From NCBI GenBank assembly GCA_963719225.1, contig CAVRAY010000001.1, forward strand, positions 1,408,001 through 1,472,000: a DNA stretch of 64,000 nt. The letters run 5' to 3'. A program made the translations under genes and the position numbers. The notes beneath the pieces are model-generated. The model worked only from the letters and a program-made list of their open reading frames with translations. It made no database searches and was not told the DNA's origin. Within the stretch, counting starts at the first letter, position 1, and each line of letters starts with the position of its first letter. Positions 12,001 through 26,112 of this stretch are shown here, piece by piece. The DNA comes from Thermoanaerobaculia bacterium (GTDB taxonomy: Bacteria > Acidobacteriota > Thermoanaerobaculia > UBA5066).

Positions 12001-12336
12001 GAGAAGTACGCCTATCAGCTCGAGCAACGTCTCATGGCTGCGGAGAGTCCCTTCCGCATCACCCTGCAGCCAGCAGCGGACGCCGCCACCGGTGCGCGGG
12101 CTCTCGCGCGAACACGCGGCTCCTTTGTCGGGCGATGGGTGAGCGGCACGAAGCGGTTGGACTATGGCTTCTACGAGTCTGTGTCGGGAGGAGCGAACTC
12201 TTCGCGGATTCTTTCGGGTGGTGATTTCACTGTGTCCCCGGGTGGCGCTTTTGGGATCCCGGCTGAGTATTCACAGGCATTCCCGGGCTCGACGATCTTC
12301 GGCATTGACCCTCTAAATATCGTTAAGGGACCATGA
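1..12336 (+). CDS. rhs: Giant Rhs/YD-repeat polymorphic toxin, 5'-truncated (>4100 aa): Ig-like/beta-rich N-terminal region, DUF6531-like segment, YD repeats, Rhs core, C-terminal toxin
   Basis: Frame is open from base 1 (the track starts it at GTG 70). Contains many YD/YxYD..GR repeats, SVSLVSGE...RTYRS...GWNSS, the core motifs YHYSPYGE and MGYARNRWYD...QDP...NLYGFV...TDPMG, then a divergent C-terminal tip. Confidence 0.95.
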   Translation, partial: GPAGSGLSATFAAGALSSPVDLGVRLTALSGQGLPEPLPLGWTPLAAAELRLVPGGVGDDALPEGTGTPFTANAVHLTLTLPSGVPSNAELFAARYDVAAGAWLALPIPVRATGAGGADTVTVALAGPGPVAVIAPDVDPATRPPVMPTSLDAPLIGTDLPSVLPALAAAIGLDPPIVSPTGRATARVLARSADGTTPWPSGLAVQAYLDEKLILSGGGELYEAPFSSDLILYHPPLAPADVGATAPGAVGSLTFRISPSPRAAQVLLDTGYENVRLFPFTDQLERGQVLGPAGGSVSSPDGVELFVPESALAQKAVVRARLLSSSELAALPVPAGYSLVAAVRVDLSGFPLARGATLKLNAPAGLPADAVDDPRLVLASFVDQPDDGRGAFARVVARVALLPAAGSVPAKLVGAPEVSGSTLPLSGITGEGVFLFLHANAPIGFVTGRVTAPNGAGYAGSRVTTPGLGTADLSQPGGLYALSAPAGSPTLNALHPTLGVSGTATVPSLPKGQIAQIDIILAPTPPRIVSLQPPAGATNQPVGTTVAILFSAPLDPASVTQTVLTVELANTDGTGTGLLFGGNVALSSDRTTVAFSSARPLPPGRTILASLKGGIRSFDGTPYAGTLPVTWTFTTSTAFLPGGNIHPEKIRLLLPVNGTAQIVGADSALPLVLGGTTPWSVWADVDGALACPSITTYPANTNGGFTATVGCPPTANVTLSSRVFIHVLDPTGTQAATWRLGPFVTPDGTGFVAPPGEETVFTTIDGIQVTSPAAAFDVPTLVKVTKKPVDSLGVAVNPGLEMAAVLDVDFEGTAHETLRLRIPVVTASPVGGVVFAGKPIDLPWGRKLQILDLGRLVDDGKGGKLISTLEADQPEDSAPDASTPASSAMAGSGHQALGGRRAQALPKKLLQSIALEFTARATAGFIMGATLELSAITGHVEPAIVGATFFVLYNALADAMVFQAVAKNWNGRFVLPSTGSAFTIVKRDLATGWILSEKSYSAIAPSPGRFVNLGDLEPAATDPPRLIDASPVAVIRFKAPTVLAGKEENLRLRLDVEAHSTDQDTTSLRAVPGEVLPDLSTVELYNLSQTSRAKAVVQAGDFNVGPLGAKSGEDLLAAVSPSDVDADDLSELSFSFSRPLASVADPATLVTLTDCGELNRSAPGPPACPSPLPVPLNVTQEANRTRLRAGLFGPLARGHLYRVELKSLTSDSTPSLAYPPTDPTVFSFATRSGQSGPIGSTVGSGVLALGDTNSARDLLKFGNLLLVGSASGKLLAMDASDPVKPVLFARLAPEAGDQLRAFASDGHNRLFYNTRLGASWAVKAVRVEDVWQALPSTCPQGLPSEPAWLTALPCFAAVPGGVKSAFALGSTTGLTPSEFLTLTGSLPTGTPSDLQILVDDDTVGPYPLEEFFDKVPGSGTPPSGPPSSPDQFYSISLTINTAGHVFDRGAGICGEPGFDKKQRVTIDDLTTGQSWSVDVPNPSTSGMSLAVAIRARKRDQIQVRYNKTAIGYLAIVGSGVSAFDLNRFYDTLTPATGGTQGNKSECGRRLGTFEGAGISFPTCGRVTPDSLAFTPALAVATGKGFIDVFSVLTHFGAGNLVAASGGPGSLQAIEMKCLVDTLPASTPTTPAPSPSYRAVTLALNTMWIDRHISPGPSPGSFVGPQTPVPPSGVRGDLAFYSLGPAGIDVYDVTGRGSMALIGRFWAKDHTVYRLASDAAGRRLFAGGQDKNGNPIIDVWDISQANGGPSKDGVFPDPAGSADTRLLFTLKAPWDTNHIGLEESTGFLYTWGVNGPGVEGGFVVPTRDPGFIFSGLYRPENESRAAGATPLPSVQVDTQDLVPLGVQTQVSTADEADPEKSKADERTATAAFKVRISLPGTLGEKLVAKVQTLRSLPDARFLSKDDVGPLVAAPGGGGWPERDVFVTLRRLVPVAGTSSDRLQQPFNLYESDEVVLLLADPRAKLAYWKSKQGLKSPAQVADEKTQCRRCGRPSYLPNDTGNTEIPVKELLAAGPWVRAYLAEPPGGDAPTAAALDFFRQQGDNFPAPSGAVQVSGHADEVPSPIQISLAEPALNPAVWSAEAGTSVSLVSGEAILAATDHAVEGRGVGFVFDRTYRSGVLGYGPLGAAGWNSSLFAHLRMLPHTGEMEFHDGGGRVWKFSPPALGGCVDVDHYESDGAFCIPKGLYVKVEVVGNGAAFRLVGRNHDTMLFDSNGRLLELSDRHRRGASDPSSQGNTLSLFYDGAGYLVRAEDELGRSYKFTYDQKPLFSGGAENPQYGLLTRIEDFATPPRVVGFIYDDLRRLLQVQLPDVTSSIAGSSYTQPTVLYHYDFTKALQDTAPLHGPDFPKFKLTGFRLPDAGADRVTLDYVPETGRVTSLAVPPSPPNSGTVAWQFQNPDPSSDAGPLNGISLVAPWQLRADYTFTSGRINTVSETVETLRGTDPSPPAGSDPPAVALTTTYVYLDDGRIDHITWPDGHVTRQDYQGTDRLEKANVSHVMAEAGGAPTGTAQHGTPTSEIRSYVDNIPETTADPEGRAVTSAVSVPSGSASPGYDAAPGQTAVSGNSKYDPFGRMKEFTGAGSNGTHVTMGFGKDAKGRPDRGFASEIARGAVKESLKYDEDGMGPRGNVTTRETSFQTSSKYEYDEWDRPVKETLGLSASGDFDAVPDAIVTRAFDPIGHLKVERRRQMDLDNGEVETVYEYNDREQLVSVTVNNLAQAAPGQTSGLATGKTRYSYNRSGQLSDVTSPHGVTTHYEYDAAGRVKSEQVSSSGIRKRAYDEMGRTVWMTDGDIGVWRGRFDAWGRMYQEDLPTGASIEREYDAAGGIKRETTFSGDPKSASSNKLAETLAHVTSFGAVNEVQEMLTASPASYRVTLKQYDGSGRLAGVTSGPTDAIQRTDLTVQYDDAGRPVVQTDGGNNETHHDYGGTAPWPVRTFVLEAVPGSPSRPKTVESEFRRDAFGRVVKETRSSGGTLVSIVQTGYDQVGNVKSVESGIGSRSEYLYDGAGRLIKETRPTGGSTKYGYDLDGRVKARVTAQGGASVSETDYGYDGAGRLASILRPDGTTESFTYNGDDTVDMWTNRSGIVVTHRYDAANRLIGRFPGSRPAGSKVVVDGGDTYDYDEASRLRAADRIDTPTGAPGVFAANAAARAAFTGYDAAGRPAEERIGARDALKRFYDTWSREVAVGVPAGVGRHGVGSFSGYTRDFDSLDRLVLMTANAGGPKLGARWDWGGTARLYGITTDNALKTAHRMSYLGSGLGAQPGGTVATPWQLGTISVASADPKQPVTDEPTTLWGQFGFGYRTGDGVKRGREVMDRQTGKPSLFSNQGWSFTPDNGLRLQTAEAGRGTRDGSSAPSIFEKFDVTYGLGDEVNLLSREGGANSSTLLATGAEGRIAKRNGIGFEHDLEGRRQKDDRFSYVWSWRGELLSVTVNDCWPAEQGSQPTSGCPANQYGSPYAKHQIRYEYDALGSLLAREHLGAQATPGDDTTRSFIERREYLWDGSHLMAEVGKAQDGTLRWRKSYVPGASGLDDAVQERIEIYSLSGVDVVSDTLYTFLRDEQNSVVALVEEKVGADPASPPTPVRYHYSPYGEAHAETGSELLLTRFDSSLHGVTKPDGTTVSQTTAADAVDGGIRLTLTLPPDPSTLAAALLVEKRNTDGTWGALNAADLALGQRAGAPEELELLPLTGFTKGATYRVGFQSLKDTLGRTATLPNFALDIPTDGTPVLLDRTYPLVYDSYFASGTTASGAFPGGQNLLFQGLWTDPVTGMGYARNRWYDARNAVWLSQDPLEDKDSPNLYGFVGARPHELTDPMGTCAELDDIPCGEYLKEFGDQFLFQNLWETTRRSGRFLLGEGKGAVKAVPNLAKGVAHVAMHPVKTIQALGTAAGEAIADPTGTAKRLGNAVMNADPDKAAEFTGGALALAGLGAAAKTTEGLAALGRLGRAGEVVEAVDAGSSLAKYGDLGYVEGLAARASRFALRRAQAGGATGRVAGRRAEEIFEKYAYQLEQRLMAAESPFRITLQPAADAATGARALARTRGSFVGRWVSGTKRLDYGFYESVSGGANSSRILSGGDFTVSPGGAFGIPAEYSQAFPGSTIFGIDPLNIVKGP
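10873..11350 (+). repeat. 478-bp rhs core segment, direct repeat of 26113-26590
   Basis: Identical by eye from gcagctgacgccgtcgac to aacgccgtct; offset 15240. Confidence 0.95.
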
Positions 12337-12806
12337 TCGAGATAGCTCCAGCGCAGATTCCCGACATTCGAGCTCGTTTGAAGAGTGCGTCAGCTGAACT
12401 AGGGGACGCATGGGCTCAGATGGAGTCGATCGAAGTACAGCCTCGTCGGCAGCAGGCTCCCTTCGTCCAGCTCGCGCACGACGAACTGCCTGGAGAGGAA
12501 ATTGACGCGATCCTCGCGTATGAGGGTATTCCACAATTCAACGGTGCCATCGGAATCCCTTTTCCGTCTCGGCCTGTCCAACTCGGTAAGAAGGAACTAC
12601 TCGTTTTTCCGATTGACGGGCTAAGAGAGCACCTGAGCTTGCACGAACCCGATCTTGTGGCGCGACTCCAGAAGAGTGGGGGCATGTCCGGCTACATCGC
12701 AGCCCAGCAGGGTGAAATCTCAGCCAGGGAGTATCTAATCGGTGGACTGCTGGAGTGCATCAATTACTGCGTCGAGAACCGCCAAGCGCTTGAAATCAAG
12801 TGGTGA
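12333..12806 (+). CDS. Putative immunity protein for the Rhs C-terminal toxin
   Basis: 157 aa, ATGA overlap with the rhs stop, lower GC, no recognised family. Confidence 0.75.
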   Translation: MIEIAPAQIPDIRARLKSASAELGDAWAQMESIEVQPRRQQAPFVQLAHDELPGEEIDAILAYEGIPQFNGAIGIPFPSRPVQLGKKELLVFPIDGLREHLSLHEPDLVARLQKSGGMSGYIAAQQGEISAREYLIGGLLECINYCVENRQALEIKW

Positions 12807-12813
12807 CGATTCC

Positions 12814-12890
12814 CGCGCGTCACGCTGCGTGCGTGAGCGGCCACGCGTGACGAGCGCGCCTGGTCGGGCACGCATCGCGCCGCGCTGAAG
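12814..12890 (+). repeat. ~75-bp imperfect direct repeat, copy 1 (copy 2 at 17526-17600)
   Basis: Shared cgctgcgtgcg...ggccacgcgtgacgagcgcgcctgg...gcacgcatcgcgccgcgctg. Confidence 0.85.
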
Positions 12891-12921
12891 ACGACCCGGA
12901 AGTCGCGGCGAGGGAGATCGT

Positions 12922-14361
12922 ATGAGTTGGTCCGAGGTGCAGCTCGCCTCACTGGCTGAGACCTACTTCCGGAGCGGCGGCGCGAGATGCCCGGGCGACA
13001 ACACGCCGCTGAAAGTGGAAAAGCTGCAATACGTCGGCAGGAAGACCGCGGATCTCTTCCTGCACTGTCGGCGCTGTGGCACGAGCGCGACTTGGGGAAA
13101 TCAGGAGCCCACGAGTGGAGCCGGTGTGTGGCCAGCGGCTGCCCGGAAACTGATTGTGGACAGCTACTGGGAGCACGGGTATGCGAACTGCCCAGTGGAC
13201 GGAGCGAATCTGACGGTCCACGAATCCCGGCAGCTGGGGAGCAAGGGTGGTGCGCACCTCCTCGTGCATTGCGTGCGCTGCGGGCGCCACTTTTCGGACG
13301 ACGGACAGGGCGAAGATCAGGAAGAAAAGGACCCTTTTCTCGCTAAGTACGAGGTCATCAGGTCACTCGGGAAAGGAGGGATGGCGACTGTCGACCTCGT
13401 GCGCGACAGGCGAACCGGTGACGAGCTCGCAGCAAAGACGATCGCGCCCGAGAGGGCACGTGAGGCTGGCTTCATCGAGCGTTTCCGTCGTGAGACGGGA
13501 ATCCTGCGAGGTCTCTCGCACCCGAACGTCGTGAAAATCATCGAGGAATTTACGCAGGGCGATCGTGCCACCTACGTCATGGAGTACCTGTCGGGCGGCG
13601 ACCTGGGGCAAGCCATCTCTGACCCGAATCGCGATGTGCACGCACTGGCGCAGCTCTTCGCGGACGCTGCGGAGGGCGTGACCCATCTTCACGGACGAGG
13701 TTTCATTCACCGCGACCTCAAGCCGAGCAACATCCTGATTGGGAATGAAGGGCGAGCGCGGGTCTCTGACTTCGGGCTGGCCATCCAGGCCGAAAGGAAT
13801 GAAGCGGTTACTCGCACGGGAGAATTTCTCGGCACGAAGATGTATGCCGCTCCCGAACAACTCCGCGGCGCGCGGGGCGTGAATGAGAAGGCGGACATCT
13901 ATTCCCTGGGCCTGATCGCCATTCAGGTCCTCAGCCGGAAGCTGAGTCAGCCAGAACTCCACCTCTGGACGGATGGAACTGATCCGGCGTCGCGTGCGCT
14001 CGCGAACGCCTTGAACCAGGATCCGGCGAAGCGCACTATCACCCCGAGGGAGCTCGCGTTGGCCGTGTGTGAACGGGTGCTGATGGAGATGGCCGTAACG
14101 GCGCAGCCGAGCCAGCAGCTCACAGCTGGCGAGAAGAACACGCTGCTGGAAATGATTCCGGACGACGACAAGGTGGACGAACACCTCGCGGCTCGCGGCC
14201 TCAGGCGCAAAGGGAAAGGACGTCCGCGTGCGGGGGAGCTTTACCTCGGCAGAGGCGGGCCGATGAGCGACGGCAGGGGCATCTATCGGCGCGAAGTCGA
14301 CAACACTCCGGGAAACGGATTCTCCGGCGCCGATCTCTTTGAGCTGCTGGAGCGGGGCTGA
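12922..14361 (+). CDS. Hanks-type Ser/Thr protein kinase with two N-terminal Zn-ribbon-like repeats
   Basis: LGKGGMATV, AAK, HRDLKPSN, DFG, APE and DIYSLG motifs; the N-terminus has CPxD-x~23-HCxxCG twice. Confidence 0.9.
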   Translation: MSWSEVQLASLAETYFRSGGARCPGDNTPLKVEKLQYVGRKTADLFLHCRRCGTSATWGNQEPTSGAGVWPAAARKLIVDSYWEHGYANCPVDGANLTVHESRQLGSKGGAHLLVHCVRCGRHFSDDGQGEDQEEKDPFLAKYEVIRSLGKGGMATVDLVRDRRTGDELAAKTIAPERAREAGFIERFRRETGILRGLSHPNVVKIIEEFTQGDRATYVMEYLSGGDLGQAISDPNRDVHALAQLFADAAEGVTHLHGRGFIHRDLKPSNILIGNEGRARVSDFGLAIQAERNEAVTRTGEFLGTKMYAAPEQLRGARGVNEKADIYSLGLIAIQVLSRKLSQPELHLWTDGTDPASRALANALNQDPAKRTITPRELALAVCERVLMEMAVTAQPSQQLTAGEKNTLLEMIPDDDKVDEHLAARGLRRKGKGRPRAGELYLGRGGPMSDGRGIYRREVDNTPGNGFSGADLFELLERG

Positions 14362-14448
14362 TCGGCTAAAGCAAGCGGCGCCGACGGTACGTCCGGGGCT
14401 CCGGCGTGCGAGGCGGACGAACTAAGCTCAAGGGATCTGTGACGGAGG

Positions 14449-14868
14449 TCAGCGGCTGGCACGTCTGCGGATGGAGAGGAGCACCTTCTCTATCTTCGCG
14501 GGCGTCCGTGTTTCGCACTCCCAGATCACGCGAACGGACCAGCCAGCGCGCCGGAGAGCAGCCGTCTTTCGGCGATCACGTGCGGCGTTTTCGGACCGCT
14601 TCTTCAGCCAGAAATCCGGATTTGTAGCAGGCACGACCTGCCCGTAGCGGCAGGCGTGCAGGTGCCAGAAACACCCGTGGACGAAGATGGCGGTGCCGAA
14701 CTTCGGGAAGACGAGATCAGGGCGGCCCGGGAGACCGGCACGATGAAGGCGGAAACGCATGCCCAGCCTGTGCGCGATGCGGCGGACGACGAGCTCGGGC
14801 GTCGTGTCGCGGCCGCGCACGGCCTGCATGTTTCGTCGGCGCTGCTCTGCAGTAAGGACGTCCGTCAC
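14449..14868 (-). CDS. vsr: Very-short-patch repair endonuclease
   Basis: MTDVLTAEQRRRNMQAVRGRDTTPE, LPGRPDLVF, FVHGCFWH and VIWECE motifs. Confidence 0.95.
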   Translation of the reverse strand: MTDVLTAEQRRRNMQAVRGRDTTPELVVRRIAHRLGMRFRLHRAGLPGRPDLVFPKFGTAIFVHGCFWHLHACRYGQVVPATNPDFWLKKRSENAARDRRKTAALRRAGWSVRVIWECETRTPAKIEKVLLSIRRRASR

Positions 14869-16030
14869 GAGCAGAGCGGACGGATCTTCTCGATGAAGCC
14901 CTCGACGGTCAGCAGATGTCGCCGGGTTTCGACGGGAAATTTCACGTGCAGAGGCTCGGGCACGACGAGCTGGACCTTCGCGTCACGCATCTCCTCGAGC
15001 TGTGCAGACGAGATGCCCTGCTGAATGGTGAGGATGTGCTTCAACGGGATACGGCGGGCCTCACGAACGACCTGTCGCCACCGGTCCTTGCACGTCGTCT
15101 TGACGCCGACGACGACGAGGCGATCATCGGGAAAGCTCTGCTGTCGGTACTGCTCTTCTCCAGGAATGATGATGTCGGGCCGGCCGTCCACGCCCCGTGG
15201 GCGCATCGTGTGTGGGATCCGCGCCTCGGAAAGGAGATAGTCCACGTGATTTTCGAGAGAGCGGCCGGCGCGCGACTTTCGACGATTCATGATGCGGCCG
15301 GCGGTGTCGAGAAAGTCGTCGACGTCGCGAAACGTCCGCGTGACCTCCGTCTGGCAGAGCTGGCGCTCCACGAGCCGAAAGAGCTTGTACTCAGCCTCGA
15401 CGAAATCGACGAGGCGCCGGTCAGGGCCAAGTGTGCGAATCGTTTCGATGCACTCGAGGAGCGCCTTGCGCGCCGCATCCGAGAATGCTCCACCCGTAGG
15501 GAAATTCGCGAGACCCGCAGCGAACGTCGGAAGTGTCGCTCGACACATGCGTCGGGCGACTCTACCTGCGGGACACCGCCACGGAAGACGGCCCACGTGT
15601 CGAGGATTGCGACGCCCAGGGCGCTCTGGACCTCGTCGATGTCGTCGTCGTGCTCGAGAACGAAGGCGCTGAATTCATGGAGCGATTTCGGGACGATGAC
15701 GAGCAGGTCTCCGACACATTCTTCGGCCATGAACGGAAAGCCCTTGCCGAACCGGGTGAGCCGATATTCGTTCTTCGCCTTTCCGTACCACTTAACGCGC
15801 GATTCGGTCGTGACGAGCCCGCCCTGCCACGTGACGCGCACCGTGCTCTCGTCGTTACGTCCCTTTTCGGGTCCGAAGGGGGCGAACAGCTCCCATGCCG
15901 ATATGGGCAGGTAATAGCCGTACTGATGGCCGCCTGTCAGGCCGACGTCATTAGGGGAAATGAACTTGAGGACCGCGTTTCCGTGCTCGAGCGCTTCTGC
16001 GATCGCTTCCTCGCAGGCGGGCGAGGGCAT
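14865..16030 (-). CDS. EcoRII-like type II restriction endonuclease (N-terminal effector domain plus catalytic domain), one frameshift near 15540
   Basis: N part has LKFISPNDVGLTGGHQYGYY and NEYRLTRFG; C part has NRRKSRAGRSLENH, RPDIIIPG and KTTCKDRWRQV. Confidence 0.88.
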
Positions 16031-16034
16031 TGCG

Positions 16035-17162
16035 TCAGGCTCTCTTACGCCCGTACTGGGCGAGGGGTGACTTCAGGAGGCAGCCCTTCTTTTCCAACTG
16101 CCAGCCGAGCGTCCGAAGGACTTCCCGGCCGACGGCCTCGACGACAGGAGGCACGACGGCGTTTCCGAACTGCCGATAGGCCTGCGTGTCCGAGACGACG
16201 ATCGGATACTCGTCGGAAAGCCCATGAGTCGCGCGCACTCGCGCGGCGTCAGGCGGCGTGGCGGCTTGCGCTTCCCCTGCGAGATGAGAATTTCGGAGCC
16301 GTCCTTGTAGTAGCGCGCGCTCAGCGTACGCGTGACGCCTCCGGGATCCGCGATTCCGAAGCCGAAACCGTTTCCCTTTTCCTTGTGGCGTCGCGCGTAT
16401 TCCTGGAGGTATGTCCAGAGGTGCTCGCTCAGCGTGTACTTATCCGGAGGATCTTTTTCCAGGATGTCCTGCAGCTTCGGGCGTGGGGCCTGTGGAGCTG
16501 CAGGGAACTCGAAGGGGGGAGCATCGCCGAAGACCCGGCGATCGAAGCAGACGATGAAGATGCGCTCCCTGTGCTGCGAGATCCAGGAAGCCGCATCGAT
16601 CACGGTGGCGTGGACCACGTAATCCAGATCCTGGAGCGTCTCGCGGATCACATTCCAGGTGCGGCCCGAATCGTGAGAGAGAGGATTTTTGACGTTTTCG
16701 AGGAGGGCGATCGGGGGCCGCTTCGCCTCGATCAGTGTGGCGAGCGTGAAGAAGAGATTCCCCGGTCGGCACACTTGAATCCGTGTGCGCGGCCGAGGCT
16801 CTTCTTCTTCGAGACGCCTGCGATCGAGAACGGCTGACATGGGAAGCCAGCAGCCATGATGTCGTGGTCAGGGATGTCTGGGAATTTCGGATGTCGCGGC
16901 GGCTCTTCTCGAACATGGTGACGTCTTCCGAGTACGGTCCACTCCGAGGAAAACACGCATGTGCCCGAGCCGCCGAGCGCGGTCTGAACCTCGATCCGGC
17001 GAAGAGATCGACGAACTTGAAGGGGAGAGCGCCGCACGGATTTCTCAACGACGGCGCCGGGCCGGAGAAGAGCGTCATCTGACCGCCGTCTGGGCCTTGC
17101 GCAGGACGACACGACGAACTCGCGTTTGGAGACGCCGTCACGGCAGATTCTCGCTGATCCAC
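16035..17162 (-). CDS. dcm: DNA cytosine-5 methyltransferase (Dcm/M.EcoRII-like), split over several frames by indels
   Basis: FVDLFAG, AGFPCQPFSIAGVSKKKSLG, LLENVKN, QHRERIFIV, TLSARYYKDGSEILI, PRRLTPRECARLMGF and SDTQAYRQFGNAV are spread over four track ORFs. Start codon uncertain. Confidence 0.88.
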
Positions 17163-17286
17163 GTGTCAACTCCGGGGTACGCCGGACAGCATGTCCGGCT
17201 ATGGCTGCCTCTGGGAAAGGACGATATCAGGAGATATCATGAATTCCCAGCGCCTCCTTCGAGAGGCTCGGAAAGGAGGAAATGAG

Positions 17287-17454
17287 ATGGCCAAGAACTC
17301 TCCCGTCGGTAGCGGCCGCCGTGTGGCGCGGTAAGGATCGATCGCAGGTGAAGAACCGATCAACGATCGCTGGACAAACGCGACGCGGAGAGCGGGCGCT
17401 TCATCGACAGAAAGCGGACGACAAGCCTTCAAGGGTGTCCGCCGCGAGAAGTGA
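17287..17454 (+). CDS. Small basic hypothetical protein (~57 aa), broken by several single-base deletions
   Basis: Strong RBS (aaggagg). Reconstructs to MAKNSPVGSGRR.GAVKDRSQVKNPINDRWTKRDAESGRFIDQKADDKPFKGVRREK if about five single bases are restored. Confidence 0.55.
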
Positions 17455-17525
17455 CCTGCCTGCGGCCGCAGAGCTGACAGTGGTCCGAACCATGGCCAGC
17501 TCTTCGTGAATCGCTCGGCGATGCT

Positions 17526-17600
17526 CGCGCGTACGCTGCGTGCGACACGGCCACGCGTGACGAGCGCGCCTGGCCGCGCACGCATCGCGCCGCGCTGGAG
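17526..17600 (+). repeat. ~75-bp imperfect direct repeat, copy 2
   Basis: Matches 12814-12890 with a few mismatches and indels. Confidence 0.85.
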
Positions 17601-17763
17601 CTTCTTCTTTAGCCGCTTCTCCGCGGCTCACCACACGCCCGAAGAGGACCGCAATCGCGCCCGCCGGCGCTCCGGCCCGCGGGGTGGAGGCGCCGGCCGC
17701 GGGGCAGCGCGCGTGCCCGCGGGTCCCTCCCGGCCTCCCATCGGGCACGCGCCTGCGAGAACC

Positions 17764-17799
17764 CGCTCGCCGATAAACGCGTTTATCGGCCCCGGCACT
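17764..17799. repeat. 36-bp inverted repeat, left arm, containing the perfect palindrome GCCGATAAACGCGTTTATCGGC
   Basis: Reverse complement matches 18536-18571 with one mismatch. Confidence 0.9.
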
Positions 17800-17878
17800 T
17801 TCATGTCCCGCTGCGCTTCGCTCCGCGGGGCCACCCCGCGGGCCTCCGGGTCGCGGCTCGCTTCGCTGCGCCGCGACC

Positions 17879-17907
17879 TTTAACAGAACGTGGAGGTCGC
17901 TGTTAAA
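17879..17907. other. Degenerate Xer-like inverted site TTTAACAG-N13-CTGTTAAA
   Basis: 8-bp AT-rich inverted arms resembling the XerD arm TTATGTTAAAT. Confidence 0.4.
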
Positions 17908-18449
17908 CGCGCGGGGCGTGCGGTGCGCGCCCGGCGGGCGCGAGCGGTGAAGGGCCTTGCGCGGCGCGCGCCTGAAGGGCGCGAGCACCTGCGCGCGCAA
18001 GCGTGCTCGGTCACGCGCCACGTCTCGCGCGCCGCGCAAGGCCTCGTGGCTGGCGGTGCTCGCTTCGCTCGGGTGGTAAAGCGCTGGCAGTGCACGTGCG
18101 CCTCTTCCGCTTCGGTCGGCTGTGCCTGGCGTGTGCTCGGCCACCTTCGCGGGCACGCTCCCGCCAGCGCCGGGCACGAGAGGATCGCGCGGGACCGCCG
18201 CGCTGCGCGCGGCCGCGCCGAAGGCGCGGCTAAGGAAGAAAGCTCTCGGGCGTGGCGCGAGCGTGCCCGTGCGAGCGGATCGAGGACACGCAGGAACGAG
18301 GCCCGCAGATGCGCGAACACGGAAGGGGAGCACGCGCAGTGCCACGCCTTTAGGCGCTCGCGCGAAGCGCGCACGGAAGATCGAGGTGTGAACCGTGAGC
18401 GAAGCCGAGGCGCGCGGGCGCGCGGTGACGACGAGCCCCGGCCTGGGCG

Positions 18450-18478
18450 GGTTTACATAGCCTTGGGTTATGTGAAAG
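18450..18478. other. dif/xrs-like site GGTTTACATAG-CCTTGGG-TTATGTGAAAG
   Basis: Right arm matches the E. coli dif XerD arm at 9/11; the left arm is an imperfect inverted copy; 7-bp spacer. Confidence 0.5.
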
Positions 18479-18535
18479 GCGAAGCCCGGAGGCGCGCGGG
18501 TGGGCTGCGTGCGCGAAGCGCACGCGCACAGGAGC

Positions 18536-18571
18536 AGTGCCGGGGCCGATAAACGCGTTTATCGGCCAGCG
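18536..18571. repeat. 36-bp inverted repeat, right arm, containing the 24-bp palindrome GGCCGATAAACGCGTTTATCGGCC
   Basis: Partner of 17764-17799. Confidence 0.9.
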
Positions 18572-18849
18572 AAAGGATGCAGCGCGCGTGACGGGAAGGG
18601 GAAATTGGGGCCACGCCTGGAACGCGCGCTGCGGAGCGCCCGGCACGAACGCCCCGCGCGCCGGAGCCCGCCGGGGCCGGGGGCGTAACGGGCCGTGCTC
18701 TTCGGAGGATGGGAGCGCGATCAGCTCACCTGTCGCGACGGCCGCTCCAGCGCGGTCACGGCGCTTGCGCGGGAGCGCGACGACGGAGCACGAGTCGCGC
18801 GGACGTGGTCGCGCGAGAGCCATTGCAAGCGTCCGTGACGCGCGGGAAG

Positions 18850-19537
18850 AGACGATGCGAGCTTCGTCTCGACCGCTTCGATAAACATCGACCGATGTCG
18901 AGGAGCGTCTGTGCCTCTGCGAGCATCTTGTCTCGTGTCCGCTTGCGCCGCTTGCGGCGGCTGCCCTTCAGGTCGATGTCCAGCTCGTGAATGATCTGAT
19001 TTCTGACCTCGAAGATCGGCCGCAGGTCTGCCGGGGACTTTCCGAGGGCCGAGGCCTCGACGCCGAGCGCTGCGGCAGCGCGAAACAACTGCTCAGCCGA
19101 CTGAAGGCTGTTTCCAGTCAGATCTTCCGTGTAATCGACGATAAGCGATCACGTAGAGACGCTGCGGAAAGAAGATGAGCTAGGAACTTCGTACCGCGGC
19201 GCGTGGATTCGTCATCCTCATTCTGGAGTCGGGACGCAACGAACCTCTCCAGACCTTCCTGAACCTTTTTGTCCTTCTTCAGGAGATCGACGAGGGTGTT
19301 GCGGATCAGCTGCTTCGTAAGCGAGTCAAGGCCTGCGCCAGCGAGAACAAGAGCAGCGCGCAGTAGATCCTGCTCGGCGTCGGTAGGAGCCCCCGCGGTC
19401 ACACCGCGGCTTTGCCTGACAACACCGAAGGCATCGTCGAAAGCCTTAACCGTCGTCTTTGCGTGATCCAAGATGAGCCTTGGGCTGGCGGTCTGAGGGT
19501 GGGGTGAGTTGCTCCGTGGTCGGCGCGCAACGGGCAT
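18850..19537 (-). CDS. HEPN-domain protein (putative RNase), frameshift near 19130, 3' end uncertain
   Basis: N part has DLLRAALVLAGAGLDS; C part has the Rx4H motif RNQIIH. Lies directly downstream of the XRE gene. Confidence 0.65.
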
Positions 19538-19542
19538 GAAGC

Positions 19543-19983
19543 TCAGCTCGCCTTGGCGAGGAAGGCGTCAATGGTCCTGAGGAGGGCCTGCTGATCACGC
19601 TTGGGGAGGCGCTCGAGGTCTTGAAGGCGCCTGAGGAGCCGGCGGTTTTTGATTGCGCCATTTCCCTTGAGTTTCTCGAGGCCGAGAAGCTCGTCGGCCG
19701 AGACACGCAGGACCCGGGTCAACTCGACGATCGCCTGGCCGTGGAGCCGCAGCTCCCCGCGCTCGTAGTCCGAGACGACCGGCTGGGCGACACCGAGATG
19801 CTCGGCCAGCTCCATCTGGGTGATGCCGCGCTCGCGGCGAAGCCGTGAGAGGCGCTCCCCGATGGACTCTTTGTTTTTCCCGTCCGGCCCGTCTTGTCTG
19901 CCACGCCCGAGGCCTCCGTCCAGAAGATCGACGGAACGATCGTAGGGCTGGATTCCGGATGGTCCTGGTCGGGCATGTCGCAT
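19543..19983 (-). CDS. XRE/Cro-C1 helix-turn-helix regulator
   Basis: IGERLSRLRRERGITQMELAEHLGVAQPVVSDYERG; divergent from the primase. The true start may be ATG 19976 with an indel in the A-run near 19875. Confidence 0.9.
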   Translation of the reverse strand: MRHARPGPSGIQPYDRSVDLLDGGLGRGRQDGPDGKNKESIGERLSRLRRERGITQMELAEHLGVAQPVVSDYERGELRLHGQAIVELTRVLRVSADELLGLEKLKGNGAIKNRRLLRRLQDLERLPKRDQQALLRTIDAFLAKAS

Positions 19984-19994
19984 CCCTCTTGCAG

Positions 19995-20003
19995 ATTATA
20001 GCA
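19995..20003 (-). promoter_or_regulatory. Extended -10 promoter (TGnTATAAT) for the XRE-HEPN operon
   Basis: Minus strand reads TGCTATAAT just upstream of the XRE RBS and start. Confidence 0.55.
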
Positions 20004-20100
20004 AAAACCTATAAGTTTGGAACACGAAGAGGAGGGCCTGCGAAATGGCCACCCGGATCCCGAAAGCTCTTGACAGCCTCCGACGAGGCAGGTGACGGCG

Positions 20101-23100
20101 ATGCCCCGCATCCCGAACGATCTCCTCGAGCGCATCAAGCACGAGACGCCGCTGCGGCTCCTCGTCGAGCGCTCGGGCGTCGTGCTGAAGGTCTCGGGCG
20201 AAAACGTCATCGGCCTGTGCCCGATGCACGACGACCACGACCCGTCTCTCGTGCTGACGCCATCGCGCGGTCTCTGGCACTGCCTGGGAGCGTGTCAGGC
20301 CGGCGGCACCGTGATCGACTGGGTCATGAAGGCCGACGGCCTCGATTTCCGCGAGGCCGTCGACAAGCTGCTAGCCGAATTCTTTCCTTTAGAAGCCGCC
20401 TCTCTCATCAGGCACGCAGCCGTCACGGAGCAGGCCTGCCCGCTCGATCTCGACGCCGACGACCAGACGCTCCTCAACCAGTACGCGGATTTCTGCCACG
20501 AGCTTTTCAAGACGACAGCCGAGCCGAAGGAGTACGCGGCTAAAAGACGGATCGCGTCCGACGAGCTCGTCTCGCATTTCAAGCTCGGCTACGCGAATCG
20601 CACGCTCGGCCTCCGTCTCCCGAGCGTGCGAGCCAGAGCCGGCCTGGCGCTCCGTATGCGCTTGCAGTCTCTCGGCATCCTCCGCGGCTCGGGCCACGAG
20701 CATCTCGTCGGCTCTCTCGTCATCCCGATTAGGGACAGCGCCGGCAACGTCACGGGCATGTACGGGAGAAAGACGCGCAACGACCTCCGGACCGGGACAC
20801 CTGATCACCTCTATCTCCCTGGCCCGCACCGCGGAGTCTTCAACGTCGAGGCTTTCGCCGAATCGAAGACGATCATCCTCACGGAGTCGCTCATCGACAC
20901 GCTCTCCTTCTGGGAAAGCGGTTTCAAGAACGTCACGTGCGCCTATGGCGTCGAGGGCTTCACCGAGGAGATTCTCGGAGCCTTCTCTTTCCACGAGATC
21001 GAGCGCTGCTACATCGCCTTCGACCGCGACGAAGCCGGCGACCGTGGTGCGACACGCGTCGCCGAGAAGCTCATGTCGGCCGGCGTCGAGTGCTTCCGCG
21101 TCCTCTTCCCGAAAGGGATGGATGCGAACGAAGTCGCCCGGAAGATGCACCCGGCCGAGAAGACGCTCGGACTCTTCATCCGGAGCGCCGAGTGGATCGG
21201 CAAAGGAAAGGGCCCGGAGAGACCGAAGAGAACCGAGAGGCCGGAAGAGGCGGCTAAAGAAGAAATGCGGGCAGCGGCCGGGCGGCCGGCTGCGCGCATC
21301 GAAGAGTCACGTGCTGCCGCCCCTGCTCAACTTCTTTCTTTAGCGGCTCCTGCGCCGCTGCCCGAAGCGCTGGCGCCAGCTCGCGAGCACGACGAGGCGG
21401 CTAAAGAAGAAAGGCCGGCCACGAGTCTGACGGCCACCACCGATCTCGACGAATTCATCCTCGTGGAAGGCGACCGCCGCTATCGCGTCCGCGGGCTCCG
21501 GAAGAATCTCTCCTACGGCTCGCTCAGGCTGAACGTCTTCGTCTCGCGCGACGGGGACCTCTTCGACGAGAAGTCACCGCTGGCCGGCTTCTTCGTCGAC
21601 ACCTTCGATCTCTACGCGGCGCGTGCCCGTGCCGTCTTCGAACGCCAAGCGTCTCTCGAGATGGGCGTCGAGGAGCGCGTCATCAAGCACGACCTGGGCG
21701 CCGTGCTGAGGCGTGCCGAGGAGCTGCAGCAGGAAGCGATCACGAAGGCGCTCGAGCCGAAGGCGCGCCCCGTCCTCATGAGCGCCGGGGACACCGAAGA
21801 GGCGATGAGGCTCCTGCGTGACCCGAACCTCCTCTATCGCATCCTCCACGACTTCTCCCGCTGCGGCGTCGTGGGCGAGGAAACGAACAAGCTCGTCGGC
21901 TATCTGGCAGCCACGTCCCGAAAGCTCGATCGCCCGCTCGCCGTCATCCTCCAGTCCTCGAGCGCGGCGGGCAAGTCGTCGCTGATGGAAGCGATCCTGG
22001 ATTTCATGCCCGAAGAGGAGCGCGAGAAGTACTCGGCGCTGACCGGCATGTCCCTCTTCTACTTCACCGAAGAGAAGAGCCTCAGGCACAAGATTCTGGC
22101 TGTCGTCGAAGAGGAAGGCGCCGAGCGCGCCAGCTACGCGCTCAAGCTTCTCCAGTCGGAAGGCGAGCTGTCGATCGCGTCCACGGGGAAGGATCCGCAC
22201 ACCGGGCGTCTCGTCACGCAGGAGTACCGCGTCGAAGGGCCCGTGATGATTTTCCTGACGACGACGGCCGCGGTCGTCGATGAAGAACTCCTGAATCGCT
22301 GCCTCGTCCTCTCCGTCGACGAGAACCGCGAACAGACGAAGAGGATCCACGAGCTTCAGCGTCAGGCCGAAACGATCGAAGGGCTCCTGGCCGCTAAAGA
22401 TAAGAGCAGGATCGTCCGCCTCCACCGCAACGCGCAGAGGCTCATCAAGCCTCTTCTCGTCGCGAATCCGTACGCAGCCCGCTTGACCTTCCTCGACGAC
22501 AGGACGCGCACGAGGCGCGATCACGTCAAGTACCTGACCCTCATCCGGTCGATCGCGCTCCTGCATCAGCACCAGAGGGAAGTGAAGACGATCGAGCACG
22601 AGGGGAAGGTCGTCGAATACATCGAGGCGACGCTCGAGGACATCGGGACCGCCAACAGGCTCGCGGCCGAAGTCCTCGGCCGCTCTCTCGACGAGCTGCC
22701 ACCGCAGACACGTCGCCTCCTCGAGCTCCTCGAAATAATGGTGACGAAAGAGAGCGAGCGGCTAAAAGTGGGAAGGGCCGACTTCCGCTTCACGCGCCGC
22801 GACGTACGCGCGCGCACGGGCTGGGGAGACACCCAGCTGAAGGTCCACCTGAACCGTCTCGTCGAGCTCGAGTACGTGCTCATCCATCGTGGGGGCCGCG
22901 GGCAGAGCTTCGTCTTCGAGCTTCTGTACGAGGGCCAGGGGAAAGACGGCTCGCGCTTCGTGCCGGGCCTCGTGGATGTCGAGACCCTCGGGCGTGAAGC
23001 CGAGCGGGCGGGGAAGAACGATGAGCAGCCGGGCCTCGGGCGGCCCCTGGTCGGCGGGCGGTCGGACTCCGGTCGGGCTGAAGAGACGCCGGGCCCGCCC

Positions 23101-23247
23101 GCTCCTGCAACTGCTTTTCTTCCTTTAGTCGCCGCGCGTTTCGACGAGGCGCTACTCGGTGGCGACCCCAAGGTGTCGTCGTACCAGGCCGAGGCAGCTA
23201 AAGAAAAAAGCTATCGGCCGCGGCGCTACTTTCTGCGCGGTGCCTGA
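20101..23247 (+). CDS. DnaG-like primase (CHC2 Zn finger plus Toprim) fused to a C-terminal P-loop NTPase
   Basis: CPMHDDHDPSL...WHCLGAC; ILTESLID and IAFDRDEAG (Toprim); ILQSSSAAGKSS (Walker A-like) and VVEEE (Walker B-like); low-complexity linker. Confidence 0.9.
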   Translation: MPRIPNDLLERIKHETPLRLLVERSGVVLKVSGENVIGLCPMHDDHDPSLVLTPSRGLWHCLGACQAGGTVIDWVMKADGLDFREAVDKLLAEFFPLEAASLIRHAAVTEQACPLDLDADDQTLLNQYADFCHELFKTTAEPKEYAAKRRIASDELVSHFKLGYANRTLGLRLPSVRARAGLALRMRLQSLGILRGSGHEHLVGSLVIPIRDSAGNVTGMYGRKTRNDLRTGTPDHLYLPGPHRGVFNVEAFAESKTIILTESLIDTLSFWESGFKNVTCAYGVEGFTEEILGAFSFHEIERCYIAFDRDEAGDRGATRVAEKLMSAGVECFRVLFPKGMDANEVARKMHPAEKTLGLFIRSAEWIGKGKGPERPKRTERPEEAAKEEMRAAAGRPAARIEESRAAAPAQLLSLAAPAPLPEALAPAREHDEAAKEERPATSLTATTDLDEFILVEGDRRYRVRGLRKNLSYGSLRLNVFVSRDGDLFDEKSPLAGFFVDTFDLYAARARAVFERQASLEMGVEERVIKHDLGAVLRRAEELQQEAITKALEPKARPVLMSAGDTEEAMRLLRDPNLLYRILHDFSRCGVVGEETNKLVGYLAATSRKLDRPLAVILQSSSAAGKSSLMEAILDFMPEEEREKYSALTGMSLFYFTEEKSLRHKILAVVEEEGAERASYALKLLQSEGELSIASTGKDPHTGRLVTQEYRVEGPVMIFLTTTAAVVDEELLNRCLVLSVDENREQTKRIHELQRQAETIEGLLAAKDKSRIVRLHRNAQRLIKPLLVANPYAARLTFLDDRTRTRRDHVKYLTLIRSIALLHQHQREVKTIEHEGKVVEYIEATLEDIGTANRLAAEVLGRSLDELPPQTRRLLELLEIMVTKESERLKVGRADFRFTRRDVRARTGWGDTQLKVHLNRLVELEYVLIHRGGRGQSFVFELLYEGQGKDGSRFVPGLVDVETLGREAERAGKNDEQPGLGRPLVGGRSDSGRAEETPGPPAPATAFLPLVAARFDEALLGGDPKVSSYQAEAAKEKSYRPRRYFLRGA

Positions 23248-24284
23248 TGGCCCGGCGTGGCGAGAAGCGCGTGTGGGCCTTCTCTGAGGCCTCGGATCCC
23301 GGCGGCCTCGTCGCGCTGATGCGGCTCTGGATCGAGTCGCTGCGCGTGCGCGGAATCTCCGCGAACACTGTCGTGCACTACGAGTGGGAAATCTCCGGCT
23401 TCATTCTCTGGTGTCACGAACGTGGCCTCGTGAGACCGGGTGAGATCTCGCGGCCGATCTTCGAGCGCTACCAGCGCTTCCTCTATCAGTACCGCACGGG
23501 CCACGGCCGGCCGCTGTCATTCCGAAGCCAGTACAAGCGGCTCGCCGCGCCGAAATACTTCTTCCGGTGGCTCGCGAGACAGGGCTATCTCCCATCCAGC
23601 CCCGCGTCCGATCTCGACATGCCGCGGCTTGGCCGGCGTCTCCCACGCCAGATCCTCACGGCCTCCGAGGCCGAGAAGGTCCTCGCGCAACCGGACCTCA
23701 CCGACCCCGTCGGCATCCGTGATCGCGCGATCCTCGAGACTTTCTACTCGACGGGGATCCGAAGAGGCGAGCTCGTCAGGCTGAAGCTCTACGACATTGG
23801 CTTCGAGAAGGGCACGCTCATGATCCGAGAGGGCAAGGGCCAGAAGGATCGCGTCATCCCGATCGGTGAGCGCGCGCTGAAGTGGCTCGAGAAATATCTG
23901 ACGGACGTGCGGCCTCATCTCGTCGTGCCTCCTGACGAGAGCGTGGTCTTCCTGACGTACATGGGCGTGCCGTTTCATCCCGACGCTCTTGGCCACGAAA
24001 TGAAGAAGTACCTGCAGGCATCGGGCGTCGGAAAAGAAGGCGCGTGTCACATCTTCCGGCACACGATGGCGACGCTGATGCTCGACGGGGGAGCCGACAT
24101 CCGTTACGTCCAGGAGATGCTCGGCCACACGAAGCTCGACACCACGACGATTTACACGCAGGTGTCGATCGACAAGCTCAAGAAGATCCACGACGCCACG
24201 CACCCAGGAGCGCGGCTCACGCCGCGAGCCGTGCCGGACGCCGAGCCTCAGAGCGCGGCCGAGGACGAAGATCCTTTCCTTTAG
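23247..24284 (+). CDS. XerC/XerD-like tyrosine recombinase
   Basis: RDRAILETFYSTGIRRGEL, GKGQKDR, HIFRH and LGH...TTTIY (complete R-K-H-R-H-Y set); TGATG coupling with the primase. Confidence 0.95.
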   Translation: MARRGEKRVWAFSEASDPGGLVALMRLWIESLRVRGISANTVVHYEWEISGFILWCHERGLVRPGEISRPIFERYQRFLYQYRTGHGRPLSFRSQYKRLAAPKYFFRWLARQGYLPSSPASDLDMPRLGRRLPRQILTASEAEKVLAQPDLTDPVGIRDRAILETFYSTGIRRGELVRLKLYDIGFEKGTLMIREGKGQKDRVIPIGERALKWLEKYLTDVRPHLVVPPDESVVFLTYMGVPFHPDALGHEMKKYLQASGVGKEGACHIFRHTMATLMLDGGADIRYVQEMLGHTKLDTTTIYTQVSIDKLKKIHDATHPGARLTPRAVPDAEPQSAAEDEDPFL

Positions 24285-24315
24285 TCCTCGCGCCGCGCGA
24301 AAATAAGGCCGCTAA

Positions 24316-25794
24316 ATGAAGAACAGGGCGCGCATCGTCTCGGGCCTCGCCGCGCTCGCTGCACTCTTCCTGGCGCCGATCGCCGAGGCATCCCTCTCGC
24401 GCTCGAGCACGCCGGCGCGCGGGGCACCCGCAATCACGCTCGCATCGCCCGCGTCCGAGCCTTCCGAGTTTTCTCTCTTCGAAGGCGACGAGCTCACGGC
24501 CGCTACCGCCGAATCAGAAGGCTCGCCGAGCTTCCATCCTTTAGCTGCCGTCTCGCTCCTCGACGAGCGCGAGCAGCGCGAGCTCGCGACGCCCCTCGAG
24601 ACAAGTTATCCGAAAACTCGCTACCGGGTTTTCGACTTCCTCGGGGCGCCTCTCCTCGGAATCGAGCGCGGTGTAAGTCTCGAACTGCACTGGGGATGCG
24701 CGTCTTTTAGCTGCGGATTTGCATCTGGGACCGTGGGCTTCCTGACGGAAGACCCGCTCGACGACATCGACAGCCCGAACGTCTACGGGTTCGTGGCCGG
24801 CAGGCCGCACGAATTTACGGATCCGGAGGGGCTGTTCTCGAGCTTGAACGCAGCCAAGGAAGGAGCGAAGACCCTCGCCCGAAACCTCGCGATCATCGGT
24901 GGAATCGGGATCGTCACGGGCTTCTGTCCTCCTTGTGGAGCGGCGCTGGCGATCGGAGCGACGGGATATCTCGCTTACGGCGTTCAGAGCGACATCAACG
25001 ACCGTCTCAAGCAGGGTCAGAACGGAGCGCAGGCCACCGCCGGCGCCATGGGCAACCTCACGGGTATCGGAGGCATCACCGAAGGCATCACGAACAAGGA
25101 CTTCGTCACCGGCGCCGAGCTCAACCTCACGGACGAGGAACGAGAAAAGCGGGTAGGGCAGGGCGCCGGCAACCTCCTGAGCTGGTTCGCGGGCCCGAAG
25201 GTATTCAAGGTCGGAGCGAAGTTCGGCGCCGGCGCCAGAGTGAAGTTTGACGCGTGGCGAGCCAGCGAAAACACCTGGCCGTCGATCAAGCCGGAGGGCG
25301 AGTGGGAGTTTGAGTCGCCGGAATCCCCCGCGACGACGTCGAATTACATAGGTCCAGAACGCCAATTGGGCCCCGCCCGAACAGCGACTGAGATGCGTAA
25401 CTCCCCAGGCGTGGCAACGGGAGGCGAACGACTGCCGGAAGTCGGTGGCAAGTGGTTGCGAGGCCAGCGGAATAACGCAGGTGTGATACCGAGACAAATC
25501 GCTGACCAGCTGCGTGGCCGCTCATTCAACAGATTCAGCGAGCTTCAAAGTGAGTTCTGGAGCCTGGTTGCGGACGACCCAGTGCTCGCTTCAGGGTTTG
25601 GAAGACGAAATCTCGCTCGAATGCGCGCGGGGCGATCGCCATTCGCTCCCCCCGGAGAAAGCACCGGGCAAGGGTGGGCACAGAAGGTCTATAACCTCCA
25701 TCATCGGACACGGGTAGGGGAAGGAGGGGGCGTCTACGACCTTGATAACCTATTGGTGGGCACGCCTCGTTACCATCAGAGTTTCCATAGGTAA
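24316..25794 (+). CDS. Signal-peptide leader (~141 aa) fused to the Rhs core tail, a pre-toxin region and a colicin/pyocin-type HNH DNase
   Basis: MKNRAR-hydrophobic-AEA, then FLTEDP...NVYGFV...TDPEG; the C-terminus has IPRQIADQLRG, FWSLVADDP and YNLHH...GGGVYDLDNL...TPRYH...H. Confidence 0.88.
   Translation: MKNRARIVSGLAALAALFLAPIAEASLSRSSTPARGAPAITLASPASEPSEFSLFEGDELTAATAESEGSPSFHPLAAVSLLDEREQRELATPLETSYPKTRYRVFDFLGAPLLGIERGVSLELHWGCASFSCGFASGTVGFLTEDPLDDIDSPNVYGFVAGRPHEFTDPEGLFSSLNAAKEGAKTLARNLAIIGGIGIVTGFCPPCGAALAIGATGYLAYGVQSDINDRLKQGQNGAQATAGAMGNLTGIGGITEGITNKDFVTGAELNLTDEEREKRVGQGAGNLLSWFAGPKVFKVGAKFGAGARVKFDAWRASENTWPSIKPEGEWEFESPESPATTSNYIGPERQLGPARTATEMRNSPGVATGGERLPEVGGKWLRGQRNNAGVIPRQIADQLRGRSFNRFSELQSEFWSLVADDPVLASGFGRRNLARMRAGRSPFAPPGESTGQGWAQKVYNLHHRTRVGEGGGVYDLDNLLVGTPRYHQSFHR
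24738..25313 (+). repeat. 576-bp near-identical repeat of 26589-27164 (Rhs tail plus pre-toxin region)
   Basis: Offset 1851; a few mostly synonymous mismatches concentrated at the 3' end; ends at codons WEF. Confidence 0.95.
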
Positions 25795-25803
25795 GAGACG
25801 AAA

Positions 25804-26034: not shown

Positions 26035-26112
26035 GGCGCCAGCCCGCGACAGCGGAATTCATACACACACGCCGGTTGTATGGGAGGGTCGGGCGTTTGT
26101 GTTTCTGACTAA

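Follow-up and report, generated by a model that had tools for sequence, protein, structure and literature searches.

Priming sites and replicon-specific single-strand initiation (ssi) signals are known kinds of DNA signal. Plasmid ssi signals (RSF1010 ssiA/ssiB, G4 type) serve a dedicated primase on both strands and consist of one or two hairpins near the origin. Phage P4 alpha and the Rep of Staphylococcus aureus pathogenicity islands (SaPI) have a primase-helicase-winged-helix architecture and short repeats in both orientations, and the DNA uptake sequences of Neisseriaceae and Pasteurellaceae are words of about 10 bp that occur on both strands and inside genes, leave peptide footprints and saturate the host chromosome. 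Here, a stretch of 64,000 nucleotides from a Thermoanaerobaculia bacterium (GCA_963719225.1, contig CAVRAY010000001.1, positions 1,408,001 to 1,472,000; the window) was analysed, in which an integrated element inside an Rhs gene encodes a primase-helicase and carries many copies of a short motif. This motif is real and works at the DNA level, and the sequence comparisons below suggest that it is probably an extended site at which the element's own DnaG-type primase starts primers.

According to PMC2978363, DnaG starts at the triplets d(CTA), d(TTA) and d(CTG), with synthesis from the middle base, and two zinc-domain residues switch it from CTA to CTG. According to PMC12839067, the priming sites of T7 gp4 are 5'-(G/T)2GTC-3' pentamers followed by an A/T-rich 3' flank of 10 nt.

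A dispersed word in the element backbone

The first-pass annotation of the window had listed about 16 motif copies, all of which were found in place, including the exact 15-mers at 17602-16 (-), 21250-64 (+) and 21397-411 (+). A weight matrix built from 184 sites of 31 other elements, with the window's clade left out, has RGC(G/A/C)GCTAAAG as its consensus, with a purine-rich tail of about six bases behind it; beyond this tail, the site flanks have no sequence in common. At a threshold of at least 12 bits, the 7.2-kb backbone (17519-24738) contains 13 sites against 0.26 expected from Markov controls, and the whole 4.75-Mb genome (G000) contains 44, of which 31 lie in the other 4.74 Mb. CTAAA is the most enriched 5-mer, with 17 copies in 11349-24739 (15 of them in the backbone) against 0.73 expected from the rest of the genome, and GCTAAA occurs there 12 times against 0.26. 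The copies lie on both strands, in non-coding DNA and in several reading frames. With the weak ones included, the 16 backbone copies are spread over 7.1 kb with gaps of 34-2044 bp. They are thus not clustered at an origin in the manner of P4/SaPI-type iterons. Nor is there the genome-wide host enrichment seen for DNA uptake sequences; unlike those, the word is confined to the element.

In the weight-matrix scan, no site of at least 12 bits was found in the 6.2-kb toxin and cargo part (11349-17518), so the motif belongs to the backbone and not to the toxin tip or the kinase/Vsr/EcoRII/Dcm cargo. The annotation had described the motif as running across the element, which holds for the backbone; in the toxin and cargo part only a weak copy near 14363 was found. 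It had also reported two matches outside the element. The one at 5430 is good (17.3 bits) and in line with a background of 31 sites per 4.74 Mb, and the one at 60011 is poor. The copy given as 20385 has a GCTTC core and, at 12.0 bits, falls just below the threshold and is counted as a variant.

Codon comparison of 11 related primase genes separates the DNA word from its peptides. Of 37 TTA codons, 34 fall inside motif sites, and outside the sites TTA accounts for 3 of 1444 leucine codons, which bears out the earlier remark that the motif imposes AAKEE and PLAA/SLAA peptides with rare codons. At site 22390 the first alanine codon varies between GCC, GCT and GCG at the motif's free position, and GCT AAA is fixed in 11 of 11 genes. 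Seven of the nine primase-gene sites are kept with frozen synonymous positions; the other two, 20536 and 22758, are each common to one relative only. Relatives in several phyla carry the same word, for the most part in protein linkers and between genes, with positions and strands that shift among distant elements. Per kb, the two linkers of the primase have 6.2 and 3.4 sites; the figure is 2.0 in the primase tail, about 0.4 in the RNA polymerase domain (RPD) and the ATPase, and 0.22 in the recombinase gene, suggesting that sites are placed where the protein tolerates them. The annotation had proposed a DNA-level signal, to be weighed against equal density across the host genome or free synonymous change. 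Neither was seen: motif density is about 280-fold higher in the backbone than in the host genome, and synonymous positions are frozen at the seven sites mentioned.

Motif sites and the primase catalytic residues

A total of 136 primase copies were detected, 91 of which had the N-terminal region and a recombinase in view, leaving 74 after near-duplicate removal. The 60 elements with the TOPRIM catalytic residues (E/DxD) contain 267 sites against 12.2 expected, with at least one site in 58 and at least two in 53. The 14 elements lacking an intact E/DxD contain 6 against 1.5 expected, with at least one site in 3. Among these 14, eight with substituted catalytic residues and three that lack the TOPRIM part have no site; the remainder are two broken remnants with 1 and 2 sites and L150 (E-N-D) with 3. 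With the training elements excluded, 122 sites against 7.7 expected were counted in 33 intact elements and 3 against 1.5 in 13 non-intact ones. All 14 non-intact elements keep the catalytic pentad of the recombinase and 13 keep the Walker A motif, so they are not simply decayed; several also have iterons. Hosts of the same family carry both site-rich and site-free elements, divided by the state of the primase.

Three elements point to the catalytic domain as what the motif tracks. L062 has no zinc domain, keeps E/DxD and has 6 sites; L151 keeps the zinc domain, has Q/R substitutions in the catalytic site and no motif sites; and L045 has no ATPase, keeps E/DxD and carries about 10 sites per unit. 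After L062 and L151, the idea that the motif follows the zinc domain was replaced by its following the catalytic residues. The option of priming or loading sites, raised in the first-pass annotation, is supported by this link.

For proteins, peptide footprints in the linker and tail (AAKE/G and P/S-LAA; in the diverse set also P/S-LVA) were used as a proxy; where the DNA was known, it picked up 30 of 58 intact primases and 1 of 9 defective ones. In one clade, footprints were present in 110 of 112 intact and 0 of 8 dead primases, and in a dead clade in 2 of 118. Among 122 usable sequences of 150 diverse representatives, they were found in 35 of 74 intact primases versus 4 of 48 others (51 per 9207 aa versus 4 per 3997 aa), and in 1 of the 12 dead primases of this set that keep the zinc domain.

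Loss of primase activity appears in a large clade (P0121-P0240; L033, L035, L036, L079), where the TOPRIM catalytic residues are lost in 120 of 120 listed proteins. This clade keeps the helicase and, in the loci seen, the recombinase, making it a successful primase-dead lineage. Catalytic alteration is also found in 48 of the 122 diverse representatives, and on the primase protein tree the catalytic state changes about 26 times.

Proposed priming and the alternative readers

The motif is more probably than not in our judgement a start signal of the primase because of both this link and its layout. With the central triplet left free, CTA was found 240 times against 4.8 expected, CTG 43 against 10.6 and TTA 12 against 2.8; in held-out elements, CTA was found 96 times against 2.8 and CTG 30 against 6.8. 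AAG, also among the enriched triplets, is probably a shifted self-match. CTA, CTG and TTA are the DnaG start triplets of PMC2978363, which counts for priming, as does the agreement of the layout with the T7 pentamer and 3' flank (PMC12839067). The window enzyme is itself DnaG-type by Pfam, sequence and fold. Chromosomal DnaG sites are 3 nt and unplanted (PMC2978363), whereas the motif has about 10 fixed bases and a tail, both placed by selection in genes of the element. Like T7 gp4, the window enzyme is a primase-helicase fusion, and the motif as read here has 5' templating bases, a central triplet and an A-rich 3' flank, in copies that are spread over the replicon and partly clustered. However, the T7 helicase is DnaB-like and the element's is MCM-like; T7 sites are chosen among 177 pentamers and are polar about the origin (PMC12839067), whereas the motif is near-absent from the host and non-polar. 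Compared with plasmid ssi hairpins, the motif is a short linear word in 4-16 copies, many of them in coding linkers.

In the proposed mechanism, the primase would bind 5'-GCNG-CTA-AAGRRRRA-3' on single-stranded DNA, with GCNG as templating bases, CTA as the triplet and an A-rich flank, and primer synthesis would begin with pppAGCNGC opposite the T of CTA. Once the element is excised, its winged helix would load the MCM-like helicase at the iteron cluster 23025-23080, and the fused primase would then prime only at the long sites, planted every 0.1-2 kb in the backbone. Since such sites are rare in the host chromosome, priming would be confined to the element. Because both strands carry sites, either displaced strand could be made double-stranded, and so could a single-stranded circle of whichever polarity; lineages without primase activity would use host priming and let their sites decay. 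The comparisons show the enrichment, the selection on DNA, the tie to the catalytic state and the distinctness from the iterons. We infer from them that the sites prime, that the iterons serve as an origin, that the element excises and replicates autonomously, and why both strands have sites.

Several observations weigh against priming as the role of the motif. Independent-pair tests of the link between sites and primase state gave 3.6 same to 1.0 opposite in 5 pairs on a first tree (p 0.375). On a second tree of 68 rows, from which six long-branch or duplicate rows had been dropped, they gave 5.3 to 1.0 of 7 pairs for all rows (p 0.22), 4.3 to 0 of 5 minus the two broken remnants (p 0.125) and 4.8 to 0 of 5 minus the remnants and L150 (p 0.0625); the protein set gave 2.6 to 0.2 of 11 (p 0.5). 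The tests agree in direction, none reaches 0.05, and kin are not independent; the 0 of 8 and 2 of 118 footprint sets probably represent one loss event each. The XRE regulator was not found in 10 of the 14 non-intact elements, which is a confound, and three that have it are still without sites. L051 and L069 are catalytically intact and have no site at the threshold (the L051 clade carries a weaker ACAGNTAA-like variant), and the non-intact L150 has its 3 sites. The 6.2-kb cargo has no strong site.

The triplets themselves add further difficulties. TTA is not enriched in held-out elements (the untrained L045 does use it), and CTG variants can be simple decay of CTA. L050 uses CGA, which is not among the triplets of PMC2978363; as a DnaG can start on a triplet with a central G (PMC2532735), this is odd but not impossible. 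The variants do not track the two CTA-to-CTG residues of DnaG (PMC2978363) and map uncleanly onto its specificity residues: CTG-rich elements are all L-F at the beta-4 residues of the zinc domain, other L-F elements use CTA only, and L062 has no such domain. The sites do not change strand about the origin (left 90+/106-, right 24+/49-), unlike simple lagging-strand priming, and a strict 10-nt core exceeds known DnaG specificity.

An alternative that we consider unlikely, yet that accounts for the primase link and the absent strand polarity, is that single-stranded copies of the word are bound by the primase half so that the primase-helicase can be loaded, anchored or restarted, with CTA not being a primer start. 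A motif copy adjoins the origin in many elements, and L050's CGA would also be explained. A variant, covered by the same low estimate, is priming on the complementary pyrimidine strand at TTA. However, the sites follow the catalytic residues better than the zinc domain (L062, L151 and the 1 of 12 dead zinc-bearing proteins), and the top-strand reading would fit all three DnaG triplets, the bottom-strand reading only two.

Still less likely is a host factor as the reader (a host primosome, antitermination or segregation factor), in which case loss of the word with the primase would reflect a change of lifestyle. The word is constant across phyla in elements with proteins that diverge to 30-45%, and its reverse strand resembles boxA (TCTTTA-C). 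Against this stand the scarcity of sites in the host's other 4.74 Mb, both orientations within one transcription unit, and the same-family hosts in which site-rich and site-free elements are split by primase state.

It is very improbable that the motif is an operator or iteron for the XRE regulator or the winged helix, read by a dimeric binder. Full palindromic double sites (CTTTAGCNGCTAAAG) in L034, L046, L066, L068, L082, L084 and L146 would suit such a binder, as would the fact that XRE was not found in 10 of 14 non-intact elements. However, it is another repeat that co-varies with the winged helix. The origin-like iterons, which have an 11-bp period, have equivalents in about 100 loci, and among backbones as alike as 80-90% their sequence still varies in step with the winged-helix recognition helix: GDTQLKVH goes with GGTCGG, TDFQVRVH with TCGAGG/C and HNTQASIH with TTCCGG. 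GDTQLK-type helices have GGTCGG-type repeats in 17 of 20 cases (misses: L077, L074, L171), and the helix region is 68-82% identical among relatives with 87-97% identical ATPases. The motif beside the cluster stays constant and shows no co-variation with the helix, so the winged helix is excluded as its reader. XRE recognition helices differ widely among site-bearing elements, even close relatives with near-identical backbones and the same word, which excludes XRE likewise; nor is there a site in the window's XRE-primase intergenic gap. The iteron cluster itself is likely an origin that is read by the winged helix and is distinct from the motif, and the co-variation of iteron and helix gives, at the sequence level, a readable protein-DNA code. 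Compared with P4 and SaPI, it is the GGTCGG repeat that takes the iteron role here, the motif being dispersed. Three words once considered as clade variants of the motif (CTTGTGAG, TGAAAAGGT and ACCCGAAAG) were rejected, as they are origin iterons.

There is equally little to recommend binding or arm sites of the XerC-like recombinase, which the annotation had suggested. TAA half-sites are typical of Xer sites, and 5 of 6 relatives share a copy at a distance of about 25 bp from the right junction. That copy is altered in L074, and there is no fixed relation to the att junction; the copies are neither limited to the att ends nor kept wherever the recombinase is intact. All 14 primase-defective elements have an intact R-H-R-H-Y, and 11 of them are without a site. 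Sites are sparsest in the recombinase gene and densest in the primase linkers, and the same word is found in one- and two-recombinase elements only about 30% identical to the window's. For a self-recognition mark, the third option of the annotation, no positive evidence was found. Chance or a protein-level artefact of AAKEE/LAA linker peptides is practically out of the question: only the two sites common to 1 of 10 relatives hint at it, and the codon comparison rules it out, with rare codons fixed beside varying wobble positions and 13 sites against 0.26 expected, on both strands, in several frames and in non-coding DNA.

The element family and its meaning

Table 1. Features of the element and motif copies in the window
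Feature	Position	Strand	Remarks
Integrated element, 13.4 kb	11349..24738	+	inside Rhs gene; tandem relatives, duplications
Left junction, core|new tip	11348/11349		
Right junction, leader|displaced tip	24738/24739		
Backbone, 7.2 kb	17519..24738		13 strong sites
XRE-family helix-turn-helix regulator	19543..19983	-	Pfam
Primase-helicase, 1051 aa	20092..23247	+	CHC2 zinc domain, DnaG RPD/TOPRIM, MCM-like AAA+ ATPase, winged helix
Iteron cluster, 11-bp period	23025..23080	+	GGTCGG at 23049, 23060, 23071; directly after winged-helix coding region
XerC-like tyrosine recombinase	23247..24284	+	catalytic R-H-R-H-Y intact
Weak copy TCGGCTAAAG	14362..14371	+	in cargo, 10.7 bits
Motif GCGGCTAAAG	17607..17616	-	non-coding, 23.8 bits
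Motif GCGGCTAAGG	18226..18235	+	non-coding, 19.4 bits, kept in relatives
Weak variant GCGCCTAAAG	18348..18357	-	absent from first-pass annotation; also in L031, L071, L075
Variant GCTTCTAAAG	20387..20396	-	linker between zinc-binding domain and RPD (PLEAA); TTA codon kept in 11/11
Motif GCGGCTAAAA	20536..20545	+	in RPD; common to 1/10 relatives
Motif	21250..21259	+	RPD-helicase linker (AAKEE)
Motif	21338..21347	-	RPD-helicase linker (SLAA)
Motif	21397..21406	+	RPD-helicase linker (AAKEE)
Motif	22390..22399	+	within ATPase domain; first Ala wobble free, GCT AAA fixed 11/11
Motif	22758..22767	+	different reading frame (RLK); common to 1/10 relatives
Motif GCGACTAAAG	23123..23132	-	about 45 bp past iteron cluster
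Motif GCAGCTAAAG	23194..23203	+	primase tail
Weak variant GGACTAAAG	24279..24288	-	over recombinase stop codon, <9 bits; given as 24274 in first-pass annotation
Motif GCCGCTAAAT	24308..24317	+	over leader ATG
Motif GCAGCTAAAG	24539..24548	-	in leader
Motif GCAGCTAAAA	24705..24714	-	about 25 bp from right junction; kept in 5/6 aligned relatives, altered in L074

The primase-helicase (Table 1) has a CHC2 zinc-binding domain (PF01807, E 1.6e-17; match to 1d0q in sequence and fold searches) and the TOPRIM catalytic residues E265, D311 and D313. The model of its DnaG RPD fold (pLDDT 89.7) best matches the Aquifex primase 2au3 (E 2.7e-23), and in the fold search the ATPase region best matches MCM helicases (E 4.5e-9, TM about 0.4). 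About half of the elements have two tandem tyrosine recombinases rather than one (L039-L044, L050-L061, L099-L132, L182), and L171 and L172 have an open reading frame (ORF) in place of the usual XRE and primase half, which we take from its sequence to be serine-resolvase-like.

Tandem relatives display the leader|tip junction predicted for a circularised window element, and duplications pair 10873-11436 with 26113-26676 and 24738-25313 with 26589-27164. At the right end, a leader ORF with a hydrophobic N-terminus (24316-24738) runs on without a frame change into the displaced colicin/pyocin-DNase tip, which may therefore still be expressed. Direct repeats of 84 bp (89%; 12807-12890 and 17519-17600) flank the kinase-Vsr-EcoRII-Dcm cargo; as relatives carry this repeat at the start of the backbone, the cargo looks like a later insertion. 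The EcoRII-like endonuclease (14868-16030) and the C5 methylase (16073-17169) are each split over two frames, by frameshifts or assembly errors. The non-coding region 17615-18850, which contains the palindrome GCCGATAAACGCGTTTATCGGC twice as well as long inverted repeats, is 76-89% conserved in relatives. It has two further copies in the genome, at C1:3645454-3646616 (in L162) and 3663511-3664673, one beside an XRE gene, and there was no primase match at either. An Rfam scan of 11000-27000 gave no match. Outside the element, a 1.48-kb segment (32390-33870) with two more identical copies in the genome is probably an insertion sequence.

Among the genomes searched, relatives turned up in 17 of 401 for the window's phylum, 13 of 400 for the class of G402, 5 of 301 for the phylum of G403 and 1 of 401 for that of G401. 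They also occur in 36 plasmid records and in 60 of the 5426 complete E. coli genomes, and the protein clusters with a match at E 1e-100 number at least 7653. A search of sequencing runs listed 8, all with small shares and no RNA run among them. The search of a phage collection found no relative among phage records, and among viral contigs none was found at first search, then one cut locus. Where relatives are annotated, their insertion sites are toxin loci of the Rhs, CdiA/haemagglutinin, FG-GAP and M23 types. The module is also present in records of 11.3 and 8.8 kb that were deposited as circular and could be assembly products of tandem copies. According to PMC2935791, an incoming Rhs tip moves its predecessor downstream when a circle recombines with the locus in one crossover; this circular intermediate is predicted there without an integrase. 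The element is alike in that the new tip would push the old one downstream via a circle. PMC3482391 and 10.64898/2026.07.13.738213 mention Xer-type systems next to immunity arrays, and the available part of PMC8138268 mentions neither primase nor Rhs. In the literature searched, no description was found of the motif, of the element as a family, of a long, dispersed, self-planted word for a DnaG-type enzyme or of a two-code toxin-swapping element; subscription papers and preprint supplements lay outside this search, and a description may be in print.

Taken as a whole, we lean slightly towards a very large family of integrative elements that swap the tips of polymorphic toxins (Rhs, CdiA and others), replicate with a DnaG-MCM fusion and have two codes: a fast-evolving one of iteron and winged helix, by which every element would have an origin of its own, and a phylum-spanning priming code of 10-15 nt written into linkers, which would restrict the primase to element DNA. 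If this is true, the start site of a DnaG-family primase would be readable from genomes and, by its length, specific to a single replicon; it would yield an exact sequence prediction (primer pppAGCNGC) and a handle on primase site choice beyond a triplet. As relatives occur in E. coli, the reading is testable in a laboratory host. The motif would also be a marker that delimits elements and flags primase-dead lineages, and possibly part of an orthogonal replication module. Finally, the element would provide a concrete vehicle, with recombinase, origin and replicase, for the circular intermediate proposed in Rhs tip displacement.

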